Assembly (NCBI GenBank): GCA_046582495.1
Contig: JAYGEG010000160.1
Coordinates: forward strand, 11,553-75,552
DNA: 64,000 nt
Source of the DNA: Rhodospirillales bacterium
GTDB lineage: Bacteria; Pseudomonadota; Alphaproteobacteria; Rhodospirillales; UBA2165
Reading direction: 5' to 3'
This document shows positions 4,128 to 48,262 of this stretch, one piece after another. The translations under genes were made by a program, and so were the position numbers. Each line of letters starts with the position of its first letter. Positions within the stretch are counted from its first letter, which is position 1. The notes under the pieces were generated by a model. The model was given only the letters and a program-made list of their open reading frames with translations. It was not told the origin of the DNA and made no database searches.

Positions 4128-5210
4128 CTATGCCTCATCCGAAATGTAATGGCGGTCAAAACGATGCCCCAAACTCGTGAGGATTTCATAGCCAATCGTT
4201 CCAGCTTGATCGGCAATTTGGTCTACAGGATTATTGGGACCAATAAGGTCTACCAATGCGCCCATATGCAACATGTCCTCCGGCACGCCGGTGACATCGA
4301 CAGTTGTTAAATCCATGGAAATCCGTCCTACCACGGGCACCTCAGAATCACCAATATAGACTATCCCCGAATTACTTAAACTGCGCATATATCCATCCGC
4401 ATAGCCGATCGCGAGTGTCGCAATTTTTGTCGGTTTTGAAGCCTGATGAGTGGCACCATAACCAACGGTCTGGAGGGTGTCAACGGACCGCAGCTGCAGG
4501 ATTTTTGCTTGTAAACGAATGACTTGCGCCATTTGGTTAACTTTTCCCGGAGTCGGGTTTACACCATACAAAGAGACCCCGGCGCGGCAAAGATCGAATT
4601 GATAATCCGGGCCTAGAAAGATACCTGAGCTCGCCGCTAAACTGACGTATTTTGCTTTGATGGATGATCGTAGCTCATTGAATAGGGCAACTTGCTCTAC
4701 GTTCTTAGGATGATCTTGATCTTCAGCGCAAGCGAGATGGCTCATCACGAGATCAATGTTGAATTTTGCCAAGTCTGGCGCGCTTTGCTCACATTCCGCT
4801 GGCGTTAATCCAAGACGCGACATGCCGGTGTCAACATGAAGACCAGCAGGCTGATCAGCATGAGCTTGCCATTGCTCAATTTGATCACGGCTGTTGAGGA
4901 TCGGGATGAGGTTATGGGCGAGCAATTCTTTGGCAGTTCCCGGTAAAACTCCATGAAATACGTAAATGCGGGCTTCTGGCAGAATTTGACGCAACTCACT
5001 GCCTTCTTCGAGCGTCGCCACGAAAAAGGTAGAACATCCCGCCGCTTGGAGAGCAGGTGCGGCCTCTTTGACACCAAGCCCATAGGCGTTGGCTTTGACG
5101 ACGGAGGCCAGTCCCGCTGATGGCAATTGGTCGCTGAGGATAGAATAATTTTTCGCGAGAGCACCTAGATCGATGGTCAAGGTCGCGCCGGCTTTTTTTA
5201 AATCGGTCAT
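4128..5210 (-). CDS. alr: Alanine racemase
   Basis: 360 aa with PLP-lysine motif VVKANAYGLG and a conserved C-terminal region (YGxxxxA...VVGRISMD). Confidence 0.9.
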   Translation of the reverse strand: MTDLKKAGATLTIDLGALAKNYSILSDQLPSAGLASVVKANAYGLGVKEAAPALQAAGCSTFFVATLEEGSELRQILPEARIYVFHGVLPGTAKELLAHNLIPILNSRDQIEQWQAHADQPAGLHVDTGMSRLGLTPAECEQSAPDLAKFNIDLVMSHLACAEDQDHPKNVEQVALFNELRSSIKAKYVSLAASSGIFLGPDYQFDLCRAGVSLYGVNPTPGKVNQMAQVIRLQAKILQLRSVDTLQTVGYGATHQASKPTKIATLAIGYADGYMRSLSNSGIVYIGDSEVPVVGRISMDLTTVDVTGVPEDMLHMGALVDLIGPNNPVDQIADQAGTIGYEILTSLGHRFDRHYISDEA

Positions 5211-5366: not shown

Positions 5367-6914
5367 TTAATAAGATTCGGTGTGTTGGGTATCGAGATCA
5401 CCAAAGCGCGTATACATGCCATGGAAATGGAGTTTTGCCGTTCCCGTCGGGCCATGACGTTGTTTGCCGATGATCACTTCGGCGACAAAACGATTTCTTT
5501 CGCTGCGTTCTTCCCAATCCGTATATCGTGTCGCAAACTTATCTGGTGATTCTTCGGGGCGCTGAACGGGCTCTCCGCGCTCGTCATAATAGGCTTGGCG
5601 ATAAATAAAGCTTACGACGTCAGCATCCTGCTCAATCGTGCCCGATTCACGAAGATCCGATAATTGAGGCCGCTTATCTTCACGTTGCTCGACCGCGCGC
5701 GACAACTGGGACAAGGCCAATACCGGCACATCCAATTCTTTTGCCAGTGTTTTTAGGCCCCGCGTAATTTCACTGATCTCCTGCACCCGATTGTCGGATC
5801 GGGAAGAGCCTTCCATCAATTGCAGATAATCGACCACAATCAAGCCCAGCCCTTCATTGCGTTTAAGACGGCGGGCGCGGGTTCGCAGCGCGGAAACCGA
5901 GAGGGCCGGTGTATCGTCAATGAAGATGGGCAGCGTATGGAGTTGCTGTGAAGCGACCACCAATTTATCAAACTCATCGTTTGTAAGTGTGCCGCGTCGC
6001 ATTTTATCGGAAGCTATCTCAGCTTGTTCAGACAAAATACGTGACGCCAATTGCTCTGCTGACATTTCGAGAGAGAAAAAACCGACCACGGCACCGTCGG
6101 TGACTTTCTTTTCGCCGCTTTCATCAATTTCAAATTTATAATCGTAAGCGGCGTTAAAAGCGATATTGGTCGCAAGCGCAGTCTTACCCATCGATGGGCG
6201 CGCGGCGAGAATGATTAAATCCGAAGGATGAAGACCTCCCATGATTTGATCGAGGTCTCGCAGGCCCGTGGAAACGCCACTGAGATGGCCATCACGTTTG
6301 TGGGCGATCTCTGCCATTTCGACAGCGGAGACGACGGAAGATTTAAAATCCTGGAAGCCGCCTTCAATTTCGCCAGTCGTTGCAAGATCATACAGCGTCT
6401 GTTCAGCGTATTCGATCTGCTTCATCGCAGGATCGTCAACTTCTGGCGTATGGGCTCGGTTTACCACCTGTTCGCCGAGCTCAATCAATTGGCGCTTGAG
6501 GTGCAAATCATAAATGGTTCGGCCATACTCGGCAGAGTTGATGACGCTGACCATTGAGCCCGCAATTTCTGCGAGATAGCGCGTGCCGCCGACATCGGCG
6601 AGTGAGCCATCTTGCTCGAAGAAAGTGCGAAGCGTGATTGGATCAGCGATCTGCCCGCGTTCGATCAGTTTCGAAGTTGCATCATAGATGTTGCCATGGA
6701 TGGGATCGGCAAAATGCTCGGGTCTTAGGTATCCCGATACCCGGTCATAGGCATTATTATTAGCGAATATGGCACCGAGCAAAGCTTTCTCCGCCTCGAA
6801 GTTATGGGGTGGTGATCTGAAACTCGGCAGGCCTTGCCCGTCATCTTGCCCGGCTTGAATATTTGCTGGATTTTGAACTGCTGTTGCCATGGCAAAGAAA
6901 TTACTCTGATCCAC
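5367..6914 (-). CDS. dnaB: Replicative DNA helicase DnaB
   Basis: 515 aa. Walker A ARPSMGKTA, the DnaB C-terminal RecA-like domain (LIVVDYLQLM ... SQLSRAVEQR) and an N-terminal DnaB domain. Confidence 0.95.
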   Translation of the reverse strand: MDQSNFFAMATAVQNPANIQAGQDDGQGLPSFRSPPHNFEAEKALLGAIFANNNAYDRVSGYLRPEHFADPIHGNIYDATSKLIERGQIADPITLRTFFEQDGSLADVGGTRYLAEIAGSMVSVINSAEYGRTIYDLHLKRQLIELGEQVVNRAHTPEVDDPAMKQIEYAEQTLYDLATTGEIEGGFQDFKSSVVSAVEMAEIAHKRDGHLSGVSTGLRDLDQIMGGLHPSDLIILAARPSMGKTALATNIAFNAAYDYKFEIDESGEKKVTDGAVVGFFSLEMSAEQLASRILSEQAEIASDKMRRGTLTNDEFDKLVVASQQLHTLPIFIDDTPALSVSALRTRARRLKRNEGLGLIVVDYLQLMEGSSRSDNRVQEISEITRGLKTLAKELDVPVLALSQLSRAVEQREDKRPQLSDLRESGTIEQDADVVSFIYRQAYYDERGEPVQRPEESPDKFATRYTDWEERSERNRFVAEVIIGKQRHGPTGTAKLHFHGMYTRFGDLDTQHTESY

Positions 6915-7003
6915 GGCGGATGAGAAGTCTGAAAGGATTCACAGCCCTGTTAGACCTGGGGATAAGTCGATAATTTTTGCAAAAATTCTATCTTGACGAA
7001 ATT

Positions 7004-8266
7004 TTATGCTGCGCGGTTGTCGTTCGCTTTGGCTTCTCTCAATGCAGATTTTTCATTTGCCATATAGTCTCTGGTCATCGGCACGATCCGTCGGTCCTTA
7101 ACCAACTGTATTTGGAATACCGTTGAATCGAGATGGCGGAACGAGACTTCGCTGCACGCAAGATAATATTCCCACATGCGGCAAAAAGTTTCATCGTAGA
7201 TATATCTTACTTGATCGCGATTGTTCTGAAAGCATTGCTGCCAGTGCCTTAGGGTCTCTGCATAGTGGAGGCCAAGGAACTCAATATCGGTTACGATCAG
7301 ACCCGTTTTCTCAATTGCCGGCATGATTTCGGAAAGCGCAGGGATATAACCGCCGGGGAAAATATATTTTCGAATCCAAGGGTCCGTTGCTACTGGCGGG
7401 CCAATGCGGCCAATTGTGTGGAGCAGGGCGACGCCATCATCTTTTAAAGAGTCTCGAATTTTATTGAAGTATGATTTGAAGTGATTGACTCCCACATGCT
7501 CAAACATACCGACCGACACGATGCGATCAAATTTATCGCCTATGGTGCGATAATCTTGCAGGTGGAAATGTGCTTTATCTGCTAAATTTTCAGATTTTGC
7601 CCGTTGATTCGATTCCCTCAATTGCTCTTCAGACAAGGTCACACCATCTACATGAGCGTCAAAATGTCGAGCGATGTAGAGACCCATTCCCCCCCAGCCG
7701 GAGCCAATATCCAATACTTTGTGGTCACGATCGAGCAAAAGCTTTGCTGCGATGTGAGCCTTCTTGTCGGTCTGTGCGGTATCCAGGTCATTGTCTGGAT
7801 TTACAAAATAGGCACAGGAATACTGACGATCTTTATCCAGGAACAATTTATACAATTCGCCAGATAGATCGTAATGATGAGCGACATTTTTTCGGGATTT
7901 TGAGGCTGGATTAAATTGTTGGACGCGCCTCGAGAGGGCATCCAGTGAACCAAAAAATCGATGTAGCCAGTGATAATCATCGAGCTCAACATTAACGGAT
8001 AAAATTTGAAGAAAATCATATATGGAGCCACCTTCAACTGAGATGCGGTCCTCCATATAACCTTTGCCGAGCGCCATGCTGGGCGATAGAGCCAACCAGG
8101 TGGCATAGCGCATGTCGTGAAAGTGAACGCAGACCTCGCCCGGAACAAGATCACTTGCCTCACCAATAAATCTATAAATCTTACCGTCGGCATTCACTAC
8201 TTTTAAGCTGCCGATCTTTATCATGCGACTGAGAATTGGCTGTAACACGTACATCGTTTCCCTCAA
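7004..8266 (-). CDS. cfa: Cyclopropane-fatty-acyl-phospholipid synthase family SAM-dependent methyltransferase
   Basis: 420 aa. SAM-binding motif VLDIGSGWGGMG and Cfa-family sequence throughout (SCAYF..., YLACSEVSFR). Confidence 0.8.
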   Translation of the reverse strand: MRETMYVLQPILSRMIKIGSLKVVNADGKIYRFIGEASDLVPGEVCVHFHDMRYATWLALSPSMALGKGYMEDRISVEGGSIYDFLQILSVNVELDDYHWLHRFFGSLDALSRRVQQFNPASKSRKNVAHHYDLSGELYKLFLDKDRQYSCAYFVNPDNDLDTAQTDKKAHIAAKLLLDRDHKVLDIGSGWGGMGLYIARHFDAHVDGVTLSEEQLRESNQRAKSENLADKAHFHLQDYRTIGDKFDRIVSVGMFEHVGVNHFKSYFNKIRDSLKDDGVALLHTIGRIGPPVATDPWIRKYIFPGGYIPALSEIMPAIEKTGLIVTDIEFLGLHYAETLRHWQQCFQNNRDQVRYIYDETFCRMWEYYLACSEVSFRHLDSTVFQIQLVKDRRIVPMTRDYMANEKSALREAKANDNRAA

Positions 8267-33712: not shown

Positions 33713-33870
33713 TGATTTTCTCCCCAAATTAAATTTGTTGCGTCTGTTCCCGAGCATTTAGCAAAAAAATTGCCAAACTGCCACACAATTGGAAAATAAG
33801 GGCGCTATTAATTTTAAAATCTGCCTCTTACCCTGCCGATTGATAATTTTGCATGAGGGGGAACACCTGC

Positions 33871-34899
33871 ATGAAGTTTGGTCTTTTTGATCACGTCGAT
33901 AAATCCACCCTTGGATTGGCGCAGCAATTTGATGACCGCCTGGAATTTGTCGCCGCGGCTGATGAGTTTGGTCTTTATAGTTACCACATCGCTGAACACC
34001 ACGCGACGCCGCTCAATATGGTGCCGGTGCCGGGCGTCTATTTAGGGGCCGTCGCGCGCCTGACCAAGCGTATTCGGCTTGGGCCTTTGGTTTATTTATT
34101 GCCGCTCTATTCACCTCTCCGACTGATTGAAGAAATTGGCATTCTTGATCATCTCTGTCATGGCCGGTTGGACATCGGAGTTGGCCGCGGCATTTCTCCA
34201 TACGAGCTCAATTATCACAGAGTTGATCCTGAATCCTCTCGTGAAATTTTCATAGAAGCTCTTGATGTTCTTCTAAAAGGCATGACCAGCGAGCGCCTCA
34301 CTCACCAAGGCAAACATTTTGACTATGAAAATGTGCCGATGGAGCTGCCGCCGATGCAGCAACCTCATCCGCCGATCTGGTATGGGTCCTCGAATGCACC
34401 TGGTTCCGCTTGGGCTGCCGAGAAAGGCTACAATTTTGTGACCCTCGGTGGGCTTGAACTCGCAAAAGGAAATATAGCTGCATTTAAAGAGGCCTATGCA
34501 GAAAGAAACGCGCCTGGAACTAATGTTGATTTTGAAGGTGGAAGCGCGATTGGCGTGATGCGACACATTGTCATTGCCGACAGCCATGAAGAGGCCATGA
34601 AATTGGCGGCTCCCACTTATGATCATTGGCATGCCAGTCTGACCAAACTAGAACGCGAAAATGTTAGGGGTCCCGCCGTTGCTAAAAACATGCCCAAAAG
34701 TGCAGAAGAAGCGATAAAGGTTGGCATGGTCATTGTTGGCACGGCTGAGACCGTCGGCGAAGAAATCGAACGTCAGATCGAAGTGCTTGGCTTAAACTAC
34801 ATGATCATTGGAATGTATTTTGGCTCGATGAAACACGCCACGGCGATGAATACGCTGGAGCAATTCAGCACCAAAATCATGCCAGGTTTGGTTGGTTAA
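33871..34899 (+). CDS. Luciferase-like (LLM class) flavin-dependent oxidoreductase
   Basis: Typical LLM N-terminus MKFGLFDH... and TIM-barrel family sequence throughout. The track start at 33853 is also possible. Confidence 0.8.
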   Translation: MKFGLFDHVDKSTLGLAQQFDDRLEFVAAADEFGLYSYHIAEHHATPLNMVPVPGVYLGAVARLTKRIRLGPLVYLLPLYSPLRLIEEIGILDHLCHGRLDIGVGRGISPYELNYHRVDPESSREIFIEALDVLLKGMTSERLTHQGKHFDYENVPMELPPMQQPHPPIWYGSSNAPGSAWAAEKGYNFVTLGGLELAKGNIAAFKEAYAERNAPGTNVDFEGGSAIGVMRHIVIADSHEEAMKLAAPTYDHWHASLTKLERENVRGPAVAKNMPKSAEEAIKVGMVIVGTAETVGEEIERQIEVLGLNYMIIGMYFGSMKHATAMNTLEQFSTKIMPGLVG

Positions 34900-35854: not shown

Positions 35855-37333
35855 TCAGTCTGAATTCCACAGCGGAGAATCGGCTGGTAAATCCTTGGAC
35901 GACACGCCTTCGGTGACATACCGCCACGCCTGAATAGAATTCGACCAGTAATTCTCTTTGAGGCCGGCTTTGCGTTTGAGGTGCGCTAGGAATTTCTCAG
36001 GGCCCGGCAGTTGCTCCCAAACCACCGGCAGGAACACGCCGCGCTTTTTACCTTCCTGAAGCACTATACCGTCGATGCCAGGTTGCAACTGAGATAGGAA
36101 GTCTTCTTCGCTTGAGAAGCTCATTGGGATTTGCGGGCTTAAGACCGATATCGACATGGTAATGTCTCCGGTCTCTATTTCCTTCGAGGTCAATTTCTGA
36201 AAACGGTGATCTTTGAAGGCGGCTTTGCAGGCATTTTCGGCGACGTCTGTAAGAAGCGGTCGCCACGCTTGAATGGAGCCAATACATCCGCGTAACTGAC
36301 CGGCTTTATTGAGCGTGACAAAACAGGCGGCGTGCTCGCCCAATGGCTTTGCAAATTCCTTCAAGCTAAGACGCATCGGGCCGGTCTTGGTTAGATGAGC
36401 GAGAATGCCTGCTGCGCCAACATGCAATAAAGTTTGGCCGTGCGCAGAAAGAAGCTCCCGCGTAGCCGCGCCAAAATCGCTCTTCGAAGTCGATTTGTTG
36501 TCGCCGTCCTCGGTAAAATACCACGAGCCGTAACCAACAACCCGGTCTTTGGTGCCCGCCGTGTCGCCAGAATTTCGGACATCTGCGGTAATAGCAGACA
36601 ACCCTTTCTCGCGTGCCATCAGCATCAGTCCTTTGATCGAATGGCGTCCGCATGCTTGTTCGTCGCCGAGCGCCATCGGGTCCAGGCGTTCGATGGCCTG
36701 GCGGGTCCGGTCGTCCATCGCTCTGGCTTTGTCATAGGAAAGGTAGTGGCTGAGATCGGAGGAAATAAGAATGAGCGTTTCCGGGCCTCCCCAAAGTGTT
36801 TCCAGAACTTCGGCAACTTCTTCTGGGCTCGCCTGGCCGACAATCATCGGCACGATGCTAAAATCGGTGAGTATTTTTTGCAGGAAAGGCAGATGAACCT
36901 CAAGCGCATGATCTTCAACATGGGTGTCGTTGAAAATTTCCACCTGTGGCAGGCCAATTATTGACGCGACCGCGTCCATATCCAGTGGAACATTGCCGAG
37001 CGGCGTCGCAAAAGCCTCCGTGCTTGGCAGCGCCAATCCTTTGACCGCGACCCGGTGACAGGGCCCCATAATAATGACGCGCTTGATGATGTCTTTGGCG
37101 GGAAGCAGGCGATTGTAGACAGCTGCTGCGGTCAGACCTGAGTAGACATAGCCGGCATGTGGCGCAATGATTGCTTTGGGGGCCGTGCTGCTCGGCATCT
37201 CGAATTTATTGGCAGCTTCTGTGAGATAGTAGTGAACAGACGCCTCAAGCTCCTTCGGATTGCTCGGATAAAACATCCCCGCCACCGCTGGCGGGCGGAT
37301 GAGTTGCGAATCTGTTTTTGAAGGCGATGCCAT
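35855..37333 (-). CDS. AmmeMemoRadiSam system fusion protein: Memo-like protein B (N-terminal) + AMMECR1-like protein A (C-terminal)
   Basis: The N-terminal half carries Memo-family motifs (PAVAGMFYP, IIAPHAGYVYSG, ISSDLSHY, EQACGRHSIKG). After a polar linker (TEDGDNKSTSKSDFG), the C-terminal half carries the AMMECR1 motif FVTLNKAGQLRGCIGSI and VLSP...GIVL...RGVFLPVVWE. Divergent from the partner radical-SAM gene. Confidence 0.85.
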   Translation of the reverse strand: MASPSKTDSQLIRPPAVAGMFYPSNPKELEASVHYYLTEAANKFEMPSSTAPKAIIAPHAGYVYSGLTAAAVYNRLLPAKDIIKRVIIMGPCHRVAVKGLALPSTEAFATPLGNVPLDMDAVASIIGLPQVEIFNDTHVEDHALEVHLPFLQKILTDFSIVPMIVGQASPEEVAEVLETLWGGPETLILISSDLSHYLSYDKARAMDDRTRQAIERLDPMALGDEQACGRHSIKGLMLMAREKGLSAITADVRNSGDTAGTKDRVVGYGSWYFTEDGDNKSTSKSDFGAATRELLSAHGQTLLHVGAAGILAHLTKTGPMRLSLKEFAKPLGEHAACFVTLNKAGQLRGCIGSIQAWRPLLTDVAENACKAAFKDHRFQKLTSKEIETGDITMSISVLSPQIPMSFSSEEDFLSQLQPGIDGIVLQEGKKRGVFLPVVWEQLPGPEKFLAHLKRKAGLKENYWSNSIQAWRYVTEGVSSKDLPADSPLWNSD

Positions 37334-37353
37334 GGGCTTTTCTCCCTGGCGTT

Positions 37354-37381
37354 ATTGTAGGCGAAAATGAACTGTTTCTAA
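37354..37381 (-). promoter_or_regulatory. Putative sigma70-type promoter for the Memo/AMMECR1 fusion gene
   Basis: On the minus strand: TTAGAA (37381-37376), a 16-nt spacer, then TACAAT (37359-37354), followed by GGAG and the ATG at 37333. Sequence pattern only. Confidence 0.3.
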
Positions 37382-37417
37382 AGTGGGGAATTAAATAGGT
37401 ATGTTTCGCTATAGACT

Positions 37418-38590
37418 TTAAGAGCTGGAAAGCGAATTTAAAATTACCTGGCACTTTTCTTTATTTAAAGTGCGACGGATTCCTTCACGGACAAAATTAT
37501 CATCTATACCCATTCTACGGCAAACTAATATATCAGATGTCCGGGAAACATTAAAAATTGTTCTTCCTCTTAGTAGAGTGTCGTCAAGGCGATTATAATC
37601 TTCATCAAGGTAGGCAACCCAATCATCTTGCAATTGAGTGATGTCTTTTCCATACACGATTTGAAAGTCTTTTCCTCTGTAGATTTGTAACAACCTACTT
37701 ATACCGCCGTTCTCAATCAAATACCTAATAAATGAACTGGCAAAAATGTACCGGATGCCAACTTTGGTATAGGTGTTGCTCTCACCATGGATACGAAATA
37801 ATTCCTAATTTTTGTGGAGTACTTTGAGTTGCCCATCTTTAATTTTATCTAATAAATGCCTTAAAGTTAACAAATGGGCATTATATTTTGTTCCCCAGCC
37901 ACCCACAGCTAATTTCACCGCCAGAAATGAGGCTAACCCTTCATCCAGCAATCTACTACTATACCAATTGTACCGGGCACCGACATTTGCATCACTGTCT
38001 ACATTCTTAATGTATGGTCCCGATCGTCCCATCAAGCTATGTGTTATTTCAAGAATCAATATACCGTCTTCAATTCTTCTCTTGAAACTTGAATAAGGAA
38101 CGATAATTCTGCCCAAGGCTGACTTGGCCCGCGGATATTTTTCAGATGATTCCTCTCGAACAATGATCGTAATTTTTCGAGGAAATTTAATTTCCAAAAA
38201 ATCGGCGACTTTTTGATAGGCTATTTCAGCGGCGTCTGCAATTTCCTGTGCTTCAAAATTTGAAATTTTGTGAGTCAATAGACACAAAATACCCCTATCA
38301 ATAATATTGGGCTGTATTAATTCACCAGCGCCTAAAGATTCTATTTCCTTACATTGATTTGGGTCATGAACATTTACAAAATTATCATTCCGAAATTGTT
38401 CAACACTGTGAAAAGGGTGTTTCGTGAAATCGCTTGAGACCGGAGTTGGATCGTGTGTTTCTGTCGTTTGGCATGCAGTCAGTGTTATCGTAACAAACAA
38501 TGCAATCGATCTTACGTACAATTTGCGCGAAATGGCTCTAGTAAAATAAAATAGTACTCTCAAAAGTTGTTCCATGAATTTTGATAGCAA
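37418..38590 (-). pseudogene. AT-rich lipoprotein gene (distant peptidase-MA-like fold) interrupted by a single in-frame TAG
   Basis: Track ORFs 37805..38590 and 37418..37720 are in the same frame. The 28 codons between them (ELFRIHGESNTYTKVGIRYIFASSFIRY) are open, and the only interruption is TAG at 37807-37805. Signal peptide and lipobox are LTLTAC. The xExxH remnant LEITH and DEGLASF lie upstream of the stop, and the FIRYLIENGG...LQDDWVAYL motif lies downstream. Hand counts gave 18/60 and 24/60 G+C for lines 37801 and 37861, against 36/60 for line 38701. Confidence 0.65.
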
Positions 38591-38654
38591 TAGAAATTGA
38601 CGATGTAAAGTATTGGAGCATTAAAAAAATCACCCCTTCGTGCTACACTGACGC

Positions 38655-39719
38655 ATGAACTTTCATACTAAACACTGGCATGCACTCGACGATGGCCGGG
38701 TGCAATGCGATGTCTGTCCGCGTGAGTGCAAGCTCAACGAAGGGCAGCGGGGCTTGTGCTTTGTGCGGGCGCGGGAAGGGGACGAGATCGTGCTCACGAC
38801 CTATGGTCGGTCTTCTGGTTTTTGCGTCGACCCAATTGAGAAAAAGCCGCTCAATCATTTTTTGCCGGGGACGCCGGTATTGTCGTTTGGGACTGCCGGC
38901 TGCAATCTCACCTGCAAATTTTGTCAGAACTACGATATTTCTAAATCTCGCGAAATGGACAAGCTCGCAGATCAGGCGAGCCCTGAAAAAATAGCAGCCG
39001 TTGCTGAAAAGCTCGGCTGTAAAAGCGTCGCTTTTACCTATAACGATCCGGTCATATTTATGGAATACGCCATGGACGTCGCCGATGCCTGTCACGAACG
39101 CGGCATAAAATCGGTCGCCGTCACGGCAGGTTACATTTGCCCGGAACCGCGCACCGAGTTCTACAACCACATTGATGCGGCGAATGTCGATCTCAAAGCC
39201 TTCACCGATAAATTTTATATGGAACTGTGTTCAGCCCATTTGGACGAGGTATTGGATACGCTGAAATATCTCAAACATGAAACCGATGTGTGGTTTGAAA
39301 TTACGACCTTGCTGATCCCCGATGAAAATGATTCAGAAAAAGAAATCAATGAGGAATGTGCGTGGATCATGGAGAATCTCGGGCCGGATGTACCGCTTCA
39401 TTTTTCTGCCTTTCATCCCGATTGGAAAATGCGCGACAAGCCAAACACGCCGCCTGAGACGCTGCACCGTGCCCGCAGGATCGCGAGAGAGCATGGACTG
39501 CGATACGTCTATCTCGGCAATATCCACGACTATGATGGTTCCAGCACCTATTGCCATTCCTGCGGTGAGACGCTGATTGGTCGGGATTGGTATGAACTAT
39601 CTACCTGGAGTCTTACGCAAAATGGCCTTTGCAGCAATTGCGGTGCCGAGTGCAATGGCGTCTTCGATGGACCGCCCGGTGCCTGGGGGCGCAAACGCCA
39701 ACCCATTCGCATGAGGTAA
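38655..39719 (+). CDS. AmmeMemoRadiSam system radical SAM enzyme
   Basis: 354 aa. The CX3CX2C radical-SAM cluster motif GCNLTCKFCQN uses Cys83/87/90 (nt 38901-38924). The N-terminal Cys cluster is CDVCPRECKLNEGQRGLCFVR and the C-terminal Cys-rich ribbon is CHSCGETL...CSNCGAEC. The architecture resembles PFL-activase. Confidence 0.85.
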   Translation: MNFHTKHWHALDDGRVQCDVCPRECKLNEGQRGLCFVRAREGDEIVLTTYGRSSGFCVDPIEKKPLNHFLPGTPVLSFGTAGCNLTCKFCQNYDISKSREMDKLADQASPEKIAAVAEKLGCKSVAFTYNDPVIFMEYAMDVADACHERGIKSVAVTAGYICPEPRTEFYNHIDAANVDLKAFTDKFYMELCSAHLDEVLDTLKYLKHETDVWFEITTLLIPDENDSEKEINEECAWIMENLGPDVPLHFSAFHPDWKMRDKPNTPPETLHRARRIAREHGLRYVYLGNIHDYDGSSTYCHSCGETLIGRDWYELSTWSLTQNGLCSNCGAECNGVFDGPPGAWGRKRQPIRMR

Positions 39720-45510: not shown

Positions 45511-46416
45511 GTGAAGGAAGAATTCAGAATGGTTCTGGCAATAGTACTTGTTTTAATAGCAGTCGGCTCTCTGGTGTTCCATATTTGGAGCCCATGGTGG
45601 GCAACACCCATCGCCTCGAATTGGGGCTCAATCGACGATGCGATTTCTATCACCTTCTGGATCACGGGCGTTGCCTATATCGTGATCATCTTATTCATGG
45701 CCTTCTGCGTTTATAAATATCGCTATCGCGAAGACCGACGCGCCGACTACGAACCTGAAAATAGCAAACTAGAGTGGTGGCTTACCTGGATAACAGCTGC
45801 CGGTGTTGTTGGGCTGTTAACGCCTGGTCTGATCGCTTGGAATGACTTTGTTACTGTGCCTGAAAATGCCACAGAATTTGAAGTTGTCGGCAAGCAATGG
45901 GAGTGGAATTTTCGTCTGCCTGGAAAAGACGGAAAACTGGGAAAAACGAGCATTAGATTGATCAACGATGACAATCCGTTCGGCATTGATCCCAATGATC
46001 CAAATGGCAGAGATGATGTTTTGATCGAAGGGGATGATTTACATCTCCTGCTCAATCAGCCGCTCAAAGCGTTGCTGCGCTCCACTGACGTATTGCACGA
46101 TTTTTATGTTCCTCAGTTCCGCGCTAAAATGGACCTTGTGCCGGGCCTAGTTACATTCTTCTGGATGACTCCCACGCGGACCGGAACCTTTGATATTTTA
46201 TGTGCCGAATTGTGTGGCGTTGGTCATCACGCCATGCGGGGTACTGTCGTCGTTGACGATGAGGCCGCTTACAAAAAGTGGCTTGGAGAACAAGAAACAT
46301 TTGCCTCGCTCTATCCTAAGGGAGCGGGAGTCAAACAAGCAGCGAACACTGAAGAGCCGAAAGAGAAAACAATTCTAACGGCAACTAAATCCGAATCGAA
46401 AAAGTCGATTCGCTAG
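45511..46416 (+). CDS. Heme-copper oxidase subunit II (CuA type, CoxM-like)
   Basis: Two N-terminal TM helices and the CuA ligand motif HDFYVP...CAELCGVGHHAM. No fused cytochrome c domain. The start could be GTG at 45511 or ATG at 45529. Confidence 0.9.
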   Translation: MKEEFRMVLAIVLVLIAVGSLVFHIWSPWWATPIASNWGSIDDAISITFWITGVAYIVIILFMAFCVYKYRYREDRRADYEPENSKLEWWLTWITAAGVVGLLTPGLIAWNDFVTVPENATEFEVVGKQWEWNFRLPGKDGKLGKTSIRLINDDNPFGIDPNDPNGRDDVLIEGDDLHLLLNQPLKALLRSTDVLHDFYVPQFRAKMDLVPGLVTFFWMTPTRTGTFDILCAELCGVGHHAMRGTVVVDDEAAYKKWLGEQETFASLYPKGAGVKQAANTEEPKEKTILTATKSESKKSIR

Positions 46417-46450
46417 TATTTATGAATTTGCAGCATAGAGGGCTGATATA

Positions 46451-48262
46451 ATGAGTAATGGTATGCTCGAAGAAACCACCGTAATCCCGACAGCAGAGCT
46501 TGAAGAGGTTGATCTTTATCACGCTCATAGTTGGATCACCAAATATGTGTTTAGTCAGGATGCTAAAATCATCGCGATCCAGTACTCAACGACGGCGGTC
46601 CTCATTGGACTGGTGGGATTGGTGTTATCCTGGTTGATGCGATTGCAGCTAGGTTTCCCGGAAGTTTTCTCTTTCATTGATGCTGAAAGCTATTATCAGT
46701 TCGTCACCATGCACGGCATGATTATGGTGATCTACCTGTTGACGGCGCTCTTCCTGGGAGGATTTGGTAACTATCTTATTCCGCTGATGGTGGGTGCCCG
46801 TGATATGGTCTTCCCCTATTTGAATATGCTCAGCTACTGGGTTTATCTCGTTGCTGTCCTGGTTTTGACCGCCAGTTTCTTCGTTCCTGGCGGCGCCTCA
46901 GGCGCAGGTTGGACGCTCTATCCACCGCAGGCCATTTCCCCAGGAACACCAGGCATAGACGGCGGTATTATATTAATGCTGGTCTCTTTAGCGCTGTTCA
47001 TTATCGGCTTTACAATGGGTGGCCTGAACTATGTGGTGACGGTACTGCAAGCGCGGGCACGCGGCATGACCCTGATGCGCATGCCGTTGACGGTATGGGG
47101 CATTTTTACAGCTACGATACTTGCGCTCTTAGCCTTCCCAGCTCTTTTTGTTGCGGCCATCATGATGACATTGGATCGTCTTTTGGGCACCAGTTTCTTC
47201 ATGCCGGAAATGATCATTCAAGGCGAATTGGCGCCCACCGAAAACGGCAGCCCGCTTTTGTTCCAGCATTTGTTCTGGTTTTTCGGCCATCCTGAAGTTT
47301 ACATCGTTGCGCTTCCTGCTTTCGGCGTTGTTTCCGATATTATCGCCACGCATGCACGGAAAAATATTTTCGGCTACCGCATGATGGTATGGGCAATTGT
47401 CGGCATTGGCGGCTTGAGCTTCGTCGTCTGGGCGCACCATATGTATGTCAGTGGTATGAATCCTTATTTTGGTTTCTTCTTTGCAACGACAACTTTGATC
47501 ATTGCCGTTCCGACAGCGCTTAAATTGTATAACTGGGTGCTGACGCTATATAAGGGCAACATTCATCTCACGATCCCAATGCTTTATTGTATTGCCTTCA
47601 TTCTGACTTTTCTGAACGGTGGCATCACAGGCCTATTCCTAGGCAACGTGATCGTTGATATTCCGTTGTCAGATACGATGTTTGTGGTTGCTCACTTCCA
47701 TATGGTGATGGGTATCGCGCCGATCTTGGTGATTTTTGCCGCTATTTATCATTGGTTCCCGAAAATGTCCGGGCGCATGCTGCATGAGGGCTGGGGGCAG
47801 TTCCATTTCTGGGTTACTTTCCTCGGCAGTTATCTGATTTATTTCCCAATGCACTACCTCGGCTTTGTCGGCGTGCCGCGGCGGTATTTCGAAATTGGCG
47901 AAACACAATTTGTGCCGCCTTCCGCAGCAACCTTGAGCGAGTTCATTACCATTGTGGTTTTGATCGTTGGCTTTGCCCAAGTGGTCTTCATCATCAATAT
48001 TGTGACGAGTATCTGGAAAGGCAAACCTGCTGGCGACAACCCCTGGAATGCGACAACGCTTGAGTGGCAAACAGCAACAACGCCTCCTGGGCATGGAAAC
48101 TTTGGCGACGAATTACCCGTGGTTTACCGTTGGGCTTATGCGTACTCAGTACCAGGTGTTGAGGCTGACTTCGTGCCGCAGAATATGCCGCCGGATCAGG
48201 TCAAACGAACTGACGGCGGATTTGGGGCGATAGCTGGAGACCCACCTGAGCTTCATAAATAG
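46451..48262 (+). CDS. Heme-copper oxidase subunit I (CoxN-like)
   Basis: 603 aa with the canonical subunit I motifs WFFGHPEVYI, HHMY and VAHFHMV. Confidence 0.95.
   Translation: MSNGMLEETTVIPTAELEEVDLYHAHSWITKYVFSQDAKIIAIQYSTTAVLIGLVGLVLSWLMRLQLGFPEVFSFIDAESYYQFVTMHGMIMVIYLLTALFLGGFGNYLIPLMVGARDMVFPYLNMLSYWVYLVAVLVLTASFFVPGGASGAGWTLYPPQAISPGTPGIDGGIILMLVSLALFIIGFTMGGLNYVVTVLQARARGMTLMRMPLTVWGIFTATILALLAFPALFVAAIMMTLDRLLGTSFFMPEMIIQGELAPTENGSPLLFQHLFWFFGHPEVYIVALPAFGVVSDIIATHARKNIFGYRMMVWAIVGIGGLSFVVWAHHMYVSGMNPYFGFFFATTTLIIAVPTALKLYNWVLTLYKGNIHLTIPMLYCIAFILTFLNGGITGLFLGNVIVDIPLSDTMFVVAHFHMVMGIAPILVIFAAIYHWFPKMSGRMLHEGWGQFHFWVTFLGSYLIYFPMHYLGFVGVPRRYFEIGETQFVPPSAATLSEFITIVVLIVGFAQVVFIINIVTSIWKGKPAGDNPWNATTLEWQTATTPPGHGNFGDELPVVYRWAYAYSVPGVEADFVPQNMPPDQVKRTDGGFGAIAGDPPELHK

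Follow-up and report, generated by a model that had tools for sequence, protein, structure and literature searches.

An intact AmmeMemoRadiSam locus of ancestral divergent layout, with an apparently decaying inserted gene, in an O2-respiring marine Rhodospirillaceae-like bacterium

The DNA analyzed here is a stretch of 64,000 nucleotides from a Rhodospirillales bacterium (contig JAYGEG010000160.1), which we call the window. It carries a bona fide, intact AmmeMemoRadiSam system, made up of a fused Memo-AMMECR1 protein and a radical S-adenosylmethionine (rSAM) enzyme. The host is a marine Rhodospirillaceae-like bacterium that respires O2, since the window also encodes COX2 and COX1 (heme-copper cytochrome c oxidase subunits II and I by Pfam; 45511-48262, + strand) about 6 kb from the rSAM gene. 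Our overall explanation, which we consider probable, is that the two units of the system retain an ancestral layout, have promoters of their own, are separated by an inserted gene that is decaying, and carry out the chemistry proposed below, a part of the account that is graded separately. The preliminary description of this DNA had called the system one of unknown function, and this still holds. TIGR04335, TIGR04336, and TIGR04337 are all hypothetical equivalogs (hypoth_equivalog) in NCBIfam release 20.0 (June 2026), and no biochemical characterization of the system was found in the literature searched, which lies largely outside subscription journals.

The genes of the system, with their domains and motifs, are as follows (positions are those of the window; aa, amino acids; ORF, open reading frame).

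35855..37333, − strand: Memo-AMMECR1 fusion gene (AmmeMemoRadiSam protein B plus protein A), 492 aa, defined by its ORF and by TIGR04336/TIGR04335
36515..37297, − strand: Memo (protein B) domain, residues 13-273, with the metal-site signature H59, H93, D193, H196, C228 intact
36434..36514, − strand: polar disordered linker, residues 274-300, sequence EDGDNKSTSKSDFGAATRELL
35909..36433, − strand: AMMECR1 (protein A) domain, residues 301-475, with RGCxG (R348-G352) and DxRF (D375-F378)
38655..39719, + strand: AmmeMemoRadiSam rSAM enzyme, 354 aa, TIGR04337
38706-38759, + strand: N-terminal 4-Cys module of the rSAM enzyme, C18-x2-C21-x3-C25-x9-C35
38901-38924, + strand: CX3CX2C motif of the rSAM enzyme, GCNLTCKFCQN, C83/C87/C90
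39552-39641, + strand: C-terminal 4-Cys ribbon of the rSAM enzyme, C300-x2-C303 ... C326-x2-C329

The coordinates of both ORFs, their motifs, and the polar linker (residues ~274-300) are as the preliminary description gave them; the motifs read in the fusion ORF are PAVAGMFYP, IIAPHAGYVYSG, ISSDLSHY, and QLRGCIGSI. Its assignment of the locus to the AmmeMemoRadiSam system was borne out by profile hidden Markov model (HMM) searches, in which all three models of the system and the corresponding Pfam domains scored above their cutoffs. TIGR04336 matched the fusion protein with 244.6 bits (cutoff, 26), residues 13-273 covering model positions 1-270 of 270, and TIGR04335 did so with 180.4 bits (cutoff, 99), residues 301-475 covering positions 2-173 of 175. 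The Pfam scores were 165.3 bits for Memo (PF01875; gathering score, 27) and 140.3 bits for AMMECR1 (PF01871; gathering score, 25). The rSAM protein matched TIGR04337 with 659.9 bits (cutoff, 220), residues 5-353 covering the full model (1-349 of 349), and its Radical_SAM Pfam match exceeds the gathering score.

The residues expected at the active sites of the fusion protein are conserved. The Memo half is 26% identical to human MEMO1 in an alignment that includes the APHAGY, GPxH, and SSDxxH motifs, with H59, H93, D193, and H196 matching the human motifs (the human metal-site residues being H49, H81, D189, H192, and C244); these four residues and C228 are invariant in 46 to 54 homologues. C228 is presumably C244 of human MEMO1, by the CGRH motif, the displayed alignment ending at residue 223. 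In the AMMECR1 half, R348-G349-C350-I-G352 and D375-H-R377-F378 are invariant among homologues. The AlphaFold (AF2) model of the fusion has a mean predicted local distance difference test score (pLDDT) of 88.5, with values below 50 at residues 277-285, which belong to the linker. This linker stands where the B and A genes of unfused relatives overlap at their stop and start codons. Foldseek matched the model to MEMO1 (7kq8; E value, 3.7e-23; TM score on target, 0.79) and to archaeal AMMECR1 (1vaj; E value, 8e-17). The structure predictions corroborate the folds of both the fusion and the rSAM enzyme and bring no fresh mechanistic information.

For the rSAM enzyme, the search results bear directly on the possibility that it is an ordinary glycyl-radical activase, of the pyruvate formate-lyase activating enzyme (PFL-AE) or NrdG type, with a target encoded elsewhere. 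Many of its homologues are labeled “pyruvate formate lyase activating enzyme” by JGI pipelines, and PFL-AE is indeed the closest fold. In Foldseek searches with the AF2 model (predicted template modeling score [pTM], 0.83), the top matches were the PFL-AE structures 3cb8 and 3c8f together with 8fo0 (E values of 7e-12 to 8e-11; TM scores of 0.70 to 0.73 on target), followed by lipoyl synthase and viperin, and PFL-AE alone was matched in a sequence search of the PDB (E value, 3e-5), which returned no solved structure for any member of the TIGR04337 family. The activase models, however, all fall far under their cutoffs, namely, TIGR02493 for PFL-AE (55.6 bits; cutoff, 231.75), TIGR02494 for generic glycyl-radical activases (46.9 bits; cutoff, 174.35), TIGR02495 for NrdG2 (37.5 bits; cutoff, 131.15), and the YjjW model (41.4 bits; cutoff, 250.2), against a TIGR04337 score three times its own cutoff. 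Moreover, no glycyl-radical enzyme is present among the annotated ORFs of the window, the largest of which encode LptD, an ABC-F protein, and COX1, and the conserved partner is Memo/AMMECR1. The HMM scores therefore effectively refute this possibility, and the earlier separation of the enzyme from the PFL and NrdG activases stands.

The rSAM enzyme is the most conserved component of the system. Across 81 sequences from about ten phyla, which are the window's own and those of 80 related genome loci (L001 to L080, the best of at least 599 hits obtained via conserved peptides), 39% of positions are at least 97% identical, and 13 cysteines are invariant (C18, C21, C25, C35, C57, C83, C87, C90, C146, C300, C303, C326, and C329). 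Over one set of 36 genomes, the rSAM enzyme has a median pairwise identity of 72%, as compared with 57.5% for Memo and 48.6% for AMMECR1; sampling by conserved peptides inflates these absolute values and leaves their ranking unaffected. In one of the loci, a Magnetovibrio metagenome-assembled genome (MAG; L018), a decayed copy of the first ~27 rSAM codons with an in-frame stop (IRTKYRHTLDDGHV*CDLCPRECK; 2521-2610, + strand) sits ~240 bp upstream of the rSAM gene.

A census of the same 80 loci, made with profile HMMs on six-frame segments, showed how the genes are arranged in relatives. A fused B-A gene lies divergently and directly upstream of the rSAM gene at 14/80 loci. The same position is taken by separate B and A genes with overlapping stop and start codons at 22/80 loci and by Memo alone at 9/80. 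Memo is downstream or convergent at 3/80, and neither Memo nor AMMECR1 occurs within the available flank at the remaining 32/80, 14 of which have the full 8 kb on both sides. Memo/AMMECR1 directly adjoins the rSAM gene at 45 of the 80 loci. Wherever Memo is nearby, divergent back-to-back placement is the rule (45/48 loci), with gaps mostly of 106 to 400 bp, and the syntenic relatives L097, L095, and L001 have a gap of 178 to 250 bp that contains no insert. These comparisons show that the divergent back-to-back layout, with the genes ~180 to 250 bp apart, is the ancestral state, and the fusion and rSAM genes therefore had separate promoters before anything was inserted between them.

The fusion is also common. 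The top 120 of ~8,000 scored fusion homologues are all B-A fusions of 465 to 533 aa with both Pfam domains, bar one of 405 aa that covers 83% of the query. JGI annotation of these homologues already reads “protein B/protein A,” and fusions of AMMECR1 to a dioxygenase, with an rSAM gene alongside, have been on record since 2007 (PMC2034487). Of the features on which the preliminary description remarked, the fusion and the layout are thus common, and the insert is a side story. A B-A fusion is no rarity and no novelty, the divergent arrangement is not special, and the insert is no reason for each half to need a promoter of its own, given that the promoters were separate beforehand.

Adjacency of the two units is evidently dispensable, because several relatives have lost it or have genes in the gap and 14 fully flanked loci lack a neighboring partner. 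In L092 (5001-6065), the rSAM gene, which shares 87% identity with that of the window, follows unrelated SBP_bac_3, EipB, and GGDEF genes; two extra genes (a 144-aa ORF and DO-GTPase2) precede LPG_synthase_TM in this locus. In L099 (4834-7479), the fusion gene is accompanied by a homologue of the insert and has NDK upstream, the rSAM block being no longer adjacent. L092 and L099 are separate loci, which may or may not belong to one organism. A sensor histidine kinase-like ORF of ~600 aa (6105-7900, − strand) occupies the Memo/rSAM gap of L037, from a Magnetovibrio MAG, and a 178-aa ORF (7409-7945, + strand) occupies that of L079, from Thalassospira sp. UBA1131; the divergent gap thus seems to be a recurrent landing site for genes. 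The rSAM sequences without an adjacent partner are intermixed with the partner-adjacent ones, and no residue separates the two groups.

The promoters of the two units were sought in the spacer, and the candidate elements are as follows.

37377-37382, − strand: candidate −35 element TTTAGA of the fusion gene, from a promoter scan
37354-37359, − strand: candidate −10 element TACAAT of the fusion gene, from a promoter scan
37342-37347, − strand: Shine-Dalgarno sequence AGGGAG of the fusion gene, from conservation
38621..38649, + strand: tentative core promoter TTAAAA-17-TACACT of the rSAM gene, its −10 element ending 5 nt before the ATG, from conservation and below the scan threshold

The promoter that the preliminary description had read as TTAGAA-16-TACAAT at 37354-37381 does exist as a site and has the support of a phylogenetic footprint; the scan returned it in the form TTTAGA-17-TACAAT (37382..37354, − strand; 9/12 matches). 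When the 130 bp preceding the ATG of the fusion gene were aligned, TTTAGAA, TA(C/T)AAT, and GGGAG were found to be kept while the spacer bases vary. The promoter hexamers and the Shine-Dalgarno sequence are conserved in L101 and L099, which have the insert, and in L097, which does not. The insertion therefore left this promoter untouched, and judging from its conservation it is a core promoter that predates the insertion, the inserted gene having landed upstream of it. Transcription of the fusion gene would start from this conserved promoter, which lies ~20 to 50 bp before the ATG. Transcripts reading through from the inserted gene may contribute, since the 84-bp spacer between that gene and the fusion gene contains no terminator-like site. 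The sole terminator-like hairpin found in the region (37278-37295, − strand) falls within the fusion ORF (codons PPAVAG, then MFY); its pairing is lost in L101 and L095, and it is therefore a coding coincidence and was rejected as a terminator.

On the other side of the spacer, the window and L092 share a conserved stretch of ~40 bp leading up to the rSAM ATG, despite the different upstream gene, and L097 shares part of it. The sequence has no Shine-Dalgarno motif before the rSAM ATG. This suggests, as we infer, a leaderless rSAM transcript from a proximal promoter of its own. Two points weigh against these assignments: both promoters are deduced from sequence conservation alone, and the 7 promoter-like sites in the AT-rich stretch, of which the fusion-gene candidate is one, compare with 3.3 ± 2.2 in shuffled sequences, an excess that is weak by itself. 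Scans for riboswitches and other Rfam RNAs over 34.5 to 41 kb of the window (at E values up to 1) and over seven related loci were negative. With compact promoters of their own and tolerance of both insertion and separation, the units probably encode products that need no strictly coupled expression.

The spacer between the two genes (37334..38654) measures 1,321 bp and has a G+C content of 0.36 to 0.40, compared with 0.50 to 0.58 in the flanks. Most of it is taken up by one gene, with the following features.

37418..38575, − strand: inserted AT-rich lipoprotein gene, a pseudogene in this assembly, 385 codons in a single frame with one TAG
38471-38482, − strand: lipobox L-T-A-C35
38051-38053, − strand: His175→Leu (changed base 38052), loss of a zinc ligand
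37805-37807, − strand: in-frame stop Q257→TAG, from one C→T change at 37807

The G+C content of this gene is 0.377, versus 0.52 to 0.54 in neighboring genes. Its intact protein carries HExxH (HEITH) and, ~30 residues on, an invariant E212-G213, which together form a gluzincin-type zinc-peptidase signature. In the window's copy, which reads LEITH and ends at codon 257, the gluzincin pattern of HExxH plus Glu is missing. The protein has no Pfam, NCBIfam, or PADLOC hit and no significant PHROG hit, and PF13485 (Peptidase_MA_2) gave none up to an E value of 10; among distant members of the family, the best PF13485 score is 29.5 bits, under the gathering score of 32.4. The family is small, an exhaustive HMMER search having found 12 members among 1.84 billion representatives. 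H175, E176, H179, E212, and G213 are invariant in the intact alleles and in all 11 aligned members. The preliminary description had spoken of an unrelated, interrupted lipoprotein gene. The absence of homology to the proteins of the system, the lipobox, and the TAG agree with this, but the interruption is specific to this assembly, for position 37807 lies in a CAG codon in five other assemblies.

The species is represented by seven independent assemblies with an identical fusion protein and 99.7 to 99.9% DNA identity, and every one that reaches the spacer carries the insert. The gene is intact as a 385-codon ORF in L082 and L083, frameshifted by +1 in L081 and by −1 in L084, and truncated in the window, where Ile266→Ser accompanies the two changes listed above among four private substitutions, two of them inactivating. 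Within the species, the insert gene has 3 synonymous, 6 nonsynonymous, 1 nonsense, and 2 frameshift variants, while the fusion gene varies at 4 sites, all synonymous, and the rSAM gene at none. Comparison of these alleles thus shows what appears to be decay of the insert gene in the species of the window, with the fusion and rSAM genes under strong purifying selection. The TAG and His175→Leu could instead be assembly or consensus errors, or minority variants, in a gene that is intact and functional in the organism. The source data are metagenome assemblies, CAG stands at 37807 in five of the others, and two assemblies have the intact 385-aa ORF. We nevertheless consider such errors an improbable explanation, as the window's copy has four private changes with two inactivating, two other assemblies are frameshifted differently, and the 6:3 ratio of nonsynonymous to synonymous changes, next to a fusion gene with synonymous changes alone, points to relaxed constraint rather than random error.

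Homologues of the insert gene in exactly the same slot, and in the orientation of the fusion gene, are present in L101 (P0244; 44% identity by tblastn, in full synteny) and in L099/L100 (P0246; 35% identity; E value, 9e-66). Those of L101 and L099 are likewise AT-rich relative to their neighbors, and the flanking proteins of the insert-bearing relatives are 68 to 91% identical to those of the window; for neighboring genes the figure is 79 to 91%, as against 35 to 44% for the fast-diverging insert. The gene is absent from all 80 genome loci and from L001, L095, and L097. It was therefore no one-off disruption, being present in the same slot in two related species and intact in other assemblies of its own. 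A lipoprotein gene with a gluzincin signature would have entered between the two core promoters in the orientation of the fusion gene. Because it is found in three related species, it most likely entered once, in the ancestor of a small subclade, and then diverged very fast, as far as sequence comparison can tell. Against this history, repeated allele replacement at the same site may be an alternative to a single insertion followed by rapid divergence, and the gene may be missing from L097 through loss and not because it was never there. Marks of a mobile element were not seen at the insert: there are no terminal inverted or direct repeats beyond short chance matches and no PADLOC or significant PHROG hits. 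No base-level boundaries of the insert can be defined against the insert-free relatives, the intergenic DNA being too diverged, and the closer relatives place the core promoters only. Between the rSAM and insert genes of L101, there is an extra ORF of 73 to 77 aa without Pfam hits (4646-4867, − strand), where the window has a space of 79 bp. A second lineage-specific insertion is found ~1 kb from the fusion gene: the window, L081, and L083 have a gene for a luciferase-like (LLM class) monooxygenase (33853-34899, + strand, in the window) between cupin and EamA genes, where L095, L097, L099, and L101 have none.

The insert gene might alternatively be a lineage-specific functional partner of the system, cotranscribed with the fusion gene, and not a passenger. 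It is co-oriented with the fusion gene in three species, with 57 to 84 bp between them, the 84-bp spacer of the window has no terminator-like site, and L099 keeps the homologue beside its fusion gene even though the rSAM block has moved. This is very unlikely, however, in view of the three of the six closest homologues that sit in unrelated contexts, the absence of the gene from the equally close L097 and from all 80 genome loci, and its decay in a species in which the system is conserved. In addition, the lipobox implies export, and no signal peptide was seen in the proteins of the system, whose fusion gene retains its own conserved promoter.

The chemistry that we propose for the system as a whole is possible rather than probable. 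It draws on the PFL-AE-type relatives of the rSAM enzyme, on Memo/AMMECR1 as its sole conserved neighbor, on the lack of a SPASM domain, and on the published idea of a Cys cleft acting on an RNA base. The AMMECR1 motifs RGCxG and DxR[aromatic] have been proposed as an active site, and the RNA-base hypothesis and the Cys cleft have been set out (Balaji and Aravind, PMC2034487). In our proposal, the rSAM enzyme, with its PFL-activase-like core and two invariant 4-Cys modules, would cleave SAM reductively, and the resulting 5′-deoxyadenosyl radical would abstract hydrogen from the substrate. This substrate would be a ubiquitous cellular molecule, either a nucleotide/RNA base or an isoprenoid, along the lines suggested by Aravind and co-workers, and not a dedicated precursor peptide, and it would be held in the AMMECR1 cleft beside the invariant Cys350. 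The His/His/Asp/His/Cys metal center of Memo would carry out an accompanying redox step or a ring-opening/hydrolytic one, and the B-A fusion would channel an intermediate between A and B. A nucleotide-base/isoprenoid proposal was reportedly made by Burroughs et al. in 2019.

Several observations weigh against this chemistry. Eukaryotes, which retain Memo and AMMECR1, are not known to have this rSAM enzyme, and the rSAM step is therefore not intrinsic to catalysis by A and B. The pTM of 0.66 for the fusion model leaves the mutual orientation of the Memo and AMMECR1 domains uncertain, which bears on channeling. The closest characterized relatives of the rSAM enzyme act on proteins, which would favor an activase, and the survey of neighbors covered ORFs of at least 90 aa only, so that a shorter conserved peptide gene would escape it.

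The last of these concerns the possibility that the rSAM enzyme matures a ribosomally synthesized and posttranslationally modified peptide (RiPP), acting on a small precursor encoded nearby. A related rSAM domain does occur in peptide-processing conflict systems (PMC7159879), and precursors under 90 aa would lie below the size limit of the survey. We still regard a RiPP role as highly improbable. The SPASM/twitch signature is absent, the best SPASM-family models reaching 15.8 to 18 bits against cutoffs of 225 to 625 and the sactipeptide and SCM maturase models 16 to 18 bits against cutoffs of 400 to 625. Across phyla, no conserved neighbor of the rSAM gene other than Memo/AMMECR1 was found among ORFs of at least 90 aa, including around partnerless rSAM genes, and apart from Memo/AMMECR1 the flanks differ wholly between phyla. 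In the window itself, only 79 bp are available before the rSAM gene, and the gene that follows it encodes a membrane protein. The preliminary description had also argued against a RiPP, from the lack of a visible small ORF; its conclusion is better carried by the missing SPASM domain and the neighbor survey than by that weak argument.

The analogy with activases leads to a model in which the target of the rSAM enzyme is its own partner, the Memo-AMMECR1 protein, where it would introduce a radical or a modification, for example, in the invariant RGCIG loop, much as PFL-AE does to PFL, and the modified protein would be the catalyst. The nearest characterized relatives by HMM, sequence, and fold are the glycyl-radical activases, which take hydrogen from a protein glycine, and the PG of their DGPG substrate-binding loop aligns with the invariant P71-G72 of the rSAM enzyme. 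AMMECR1 has an invariant Arg-Gly-Cys-x-Gly loop, a radical on the conserved Cys has been suggested (Balaji and Aravind, PMC2034487), Memo/AMMECR1 is the sole neighbor conserved across phyla, and unlinked genes with independent promoters would suit a substoichiometric, catalytic activase. On the other hand, there is no glycyl-radical domain, no fingerprint of the RVxG[FWY] type was seen by eye, and the activase models score 4- to 8-fold under their cutoffs. The host respires O2, and glycyl radicals are O2 labile. In eukaryotes, Memo and AMMECR1 function where no such enzyme is known. The identity of the rSAM enzyme (72%) exceeds that of its supposed target (57.5%/48.6%), the reverse of the usual pattern for an activase and its target. 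Taken together, we think this model unlikely.

A further reading, to which we give little credence, is that the rSAM enzyme is an autonomous catalytic maturase of a universal and highly conserved macromolecule (for example, a core protein or a base in rRNA or tRNA), with Memo-AMMECR1 completing the chemistry. It is suggested by a conservation near that of ribosomal proteins, by the 13 invariant cysteines and two 4-Cys modules, and by the repeated and apparently harmless unlinking of the genes, as seen in the inserted gene, in a translocation, and in the 14 fully flanked loci that lack a neighboring partner. If it were true, the natural unlinked variants of this clade could separate the two steps. 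The substrate chemistry proposed above, with hydrogen abstraction by the rSAM enzyme and the AMMECR1 cleft as the binding site, is the one that we prefer.

Memo and AMMECR1 extend from archaea to humans, and both are tied to human disease, so that their biochemical role with the rSAM partner is a long-standing question. Makarova et al. placed AMMECR1 among the top uncharacterized archaeal families. The locus described here gives no more leverage on this question than thousands of others, and its organism is uncultured; the cultured carriers Shumkonia mesophila, Halomonas ramblicola, Microvirga vignae, and Peristeroidobacter agariperforans are better experimental entry points. The slow evolution of the rSAM enzyme relative to its partners and the 13 invariant cysteines in three groups do constrain models of the substrate. 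The insert adds the first record, in this context, of a small and fast-evolving lipoprotein family with a gluzincin signature.

Among known systems, the insert family resembles the MA-clan gluzincins (PF13485) in its HExxH and in the E-G ~30 residues on. It differs from them in lacking a Pfam hit and in having a lipoprotein signal, and the window's copy has lost a zinc ligand. The AMMECR1 half shares with the human disease protein and with archaeal structures (1vaj, PH0010; 1wsc; 1zq7) the two-lobed RAGNYA fold and the invariant RGCxG and DxR[aromatic] motifs, but it forms the C-terminal domain of a fusion. The Memo half has the fold of human MEMO1 (PDB 3bcz; 7kq8, Fe bound; 7l5c, Cu bound) and of the class III extradiol dioxygenase LigB, together with the metal-site residues of MEMO1. 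It differs from MEMO1 in its low identity, in its fusion to AMMECR1, and in its linkage to an rSAM enzyme that eukaryotes lack.

The glycyl-radical activases (PFL-AE; PDB 3cb8/3c8f) are the best structural and sequence match to the rSAM enzyme among characterized enzymes, sharing the partial TIM-barrel core, CX3CX2C, and the PG of the DGPG loop. This is resemblance, not membership: the rSAM enzyme of the window is extended by ~70 aa at its N terminus, in a module that holds 4 invariant Cys, and ends in a 4-Cys ribbon at its C terminus, and its partner is Memo/AMMECR1 instead of a glycyl-radical enzyme. Of the AmmeMemoRadiSam system, by contrast, the locus is a full member, as each of the three models is matched from end to end with a score over its cutoff, the genes are neighbors 1.3 kb apart, and the B-A fusion with divergent layout is the commonest arrangement among relatives. 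What sets the window apart within the system is the 1.16-kb foreign gene between the units and a host that respires O2. AMMECR1 was found to be the strongest Pfam marker of anaerobes in a 2026 study, occurring in 50.7% of anaerobes and 3.4% of aerobes (PMC13386939), and the aerobic carrier described here is therefore a minority case.

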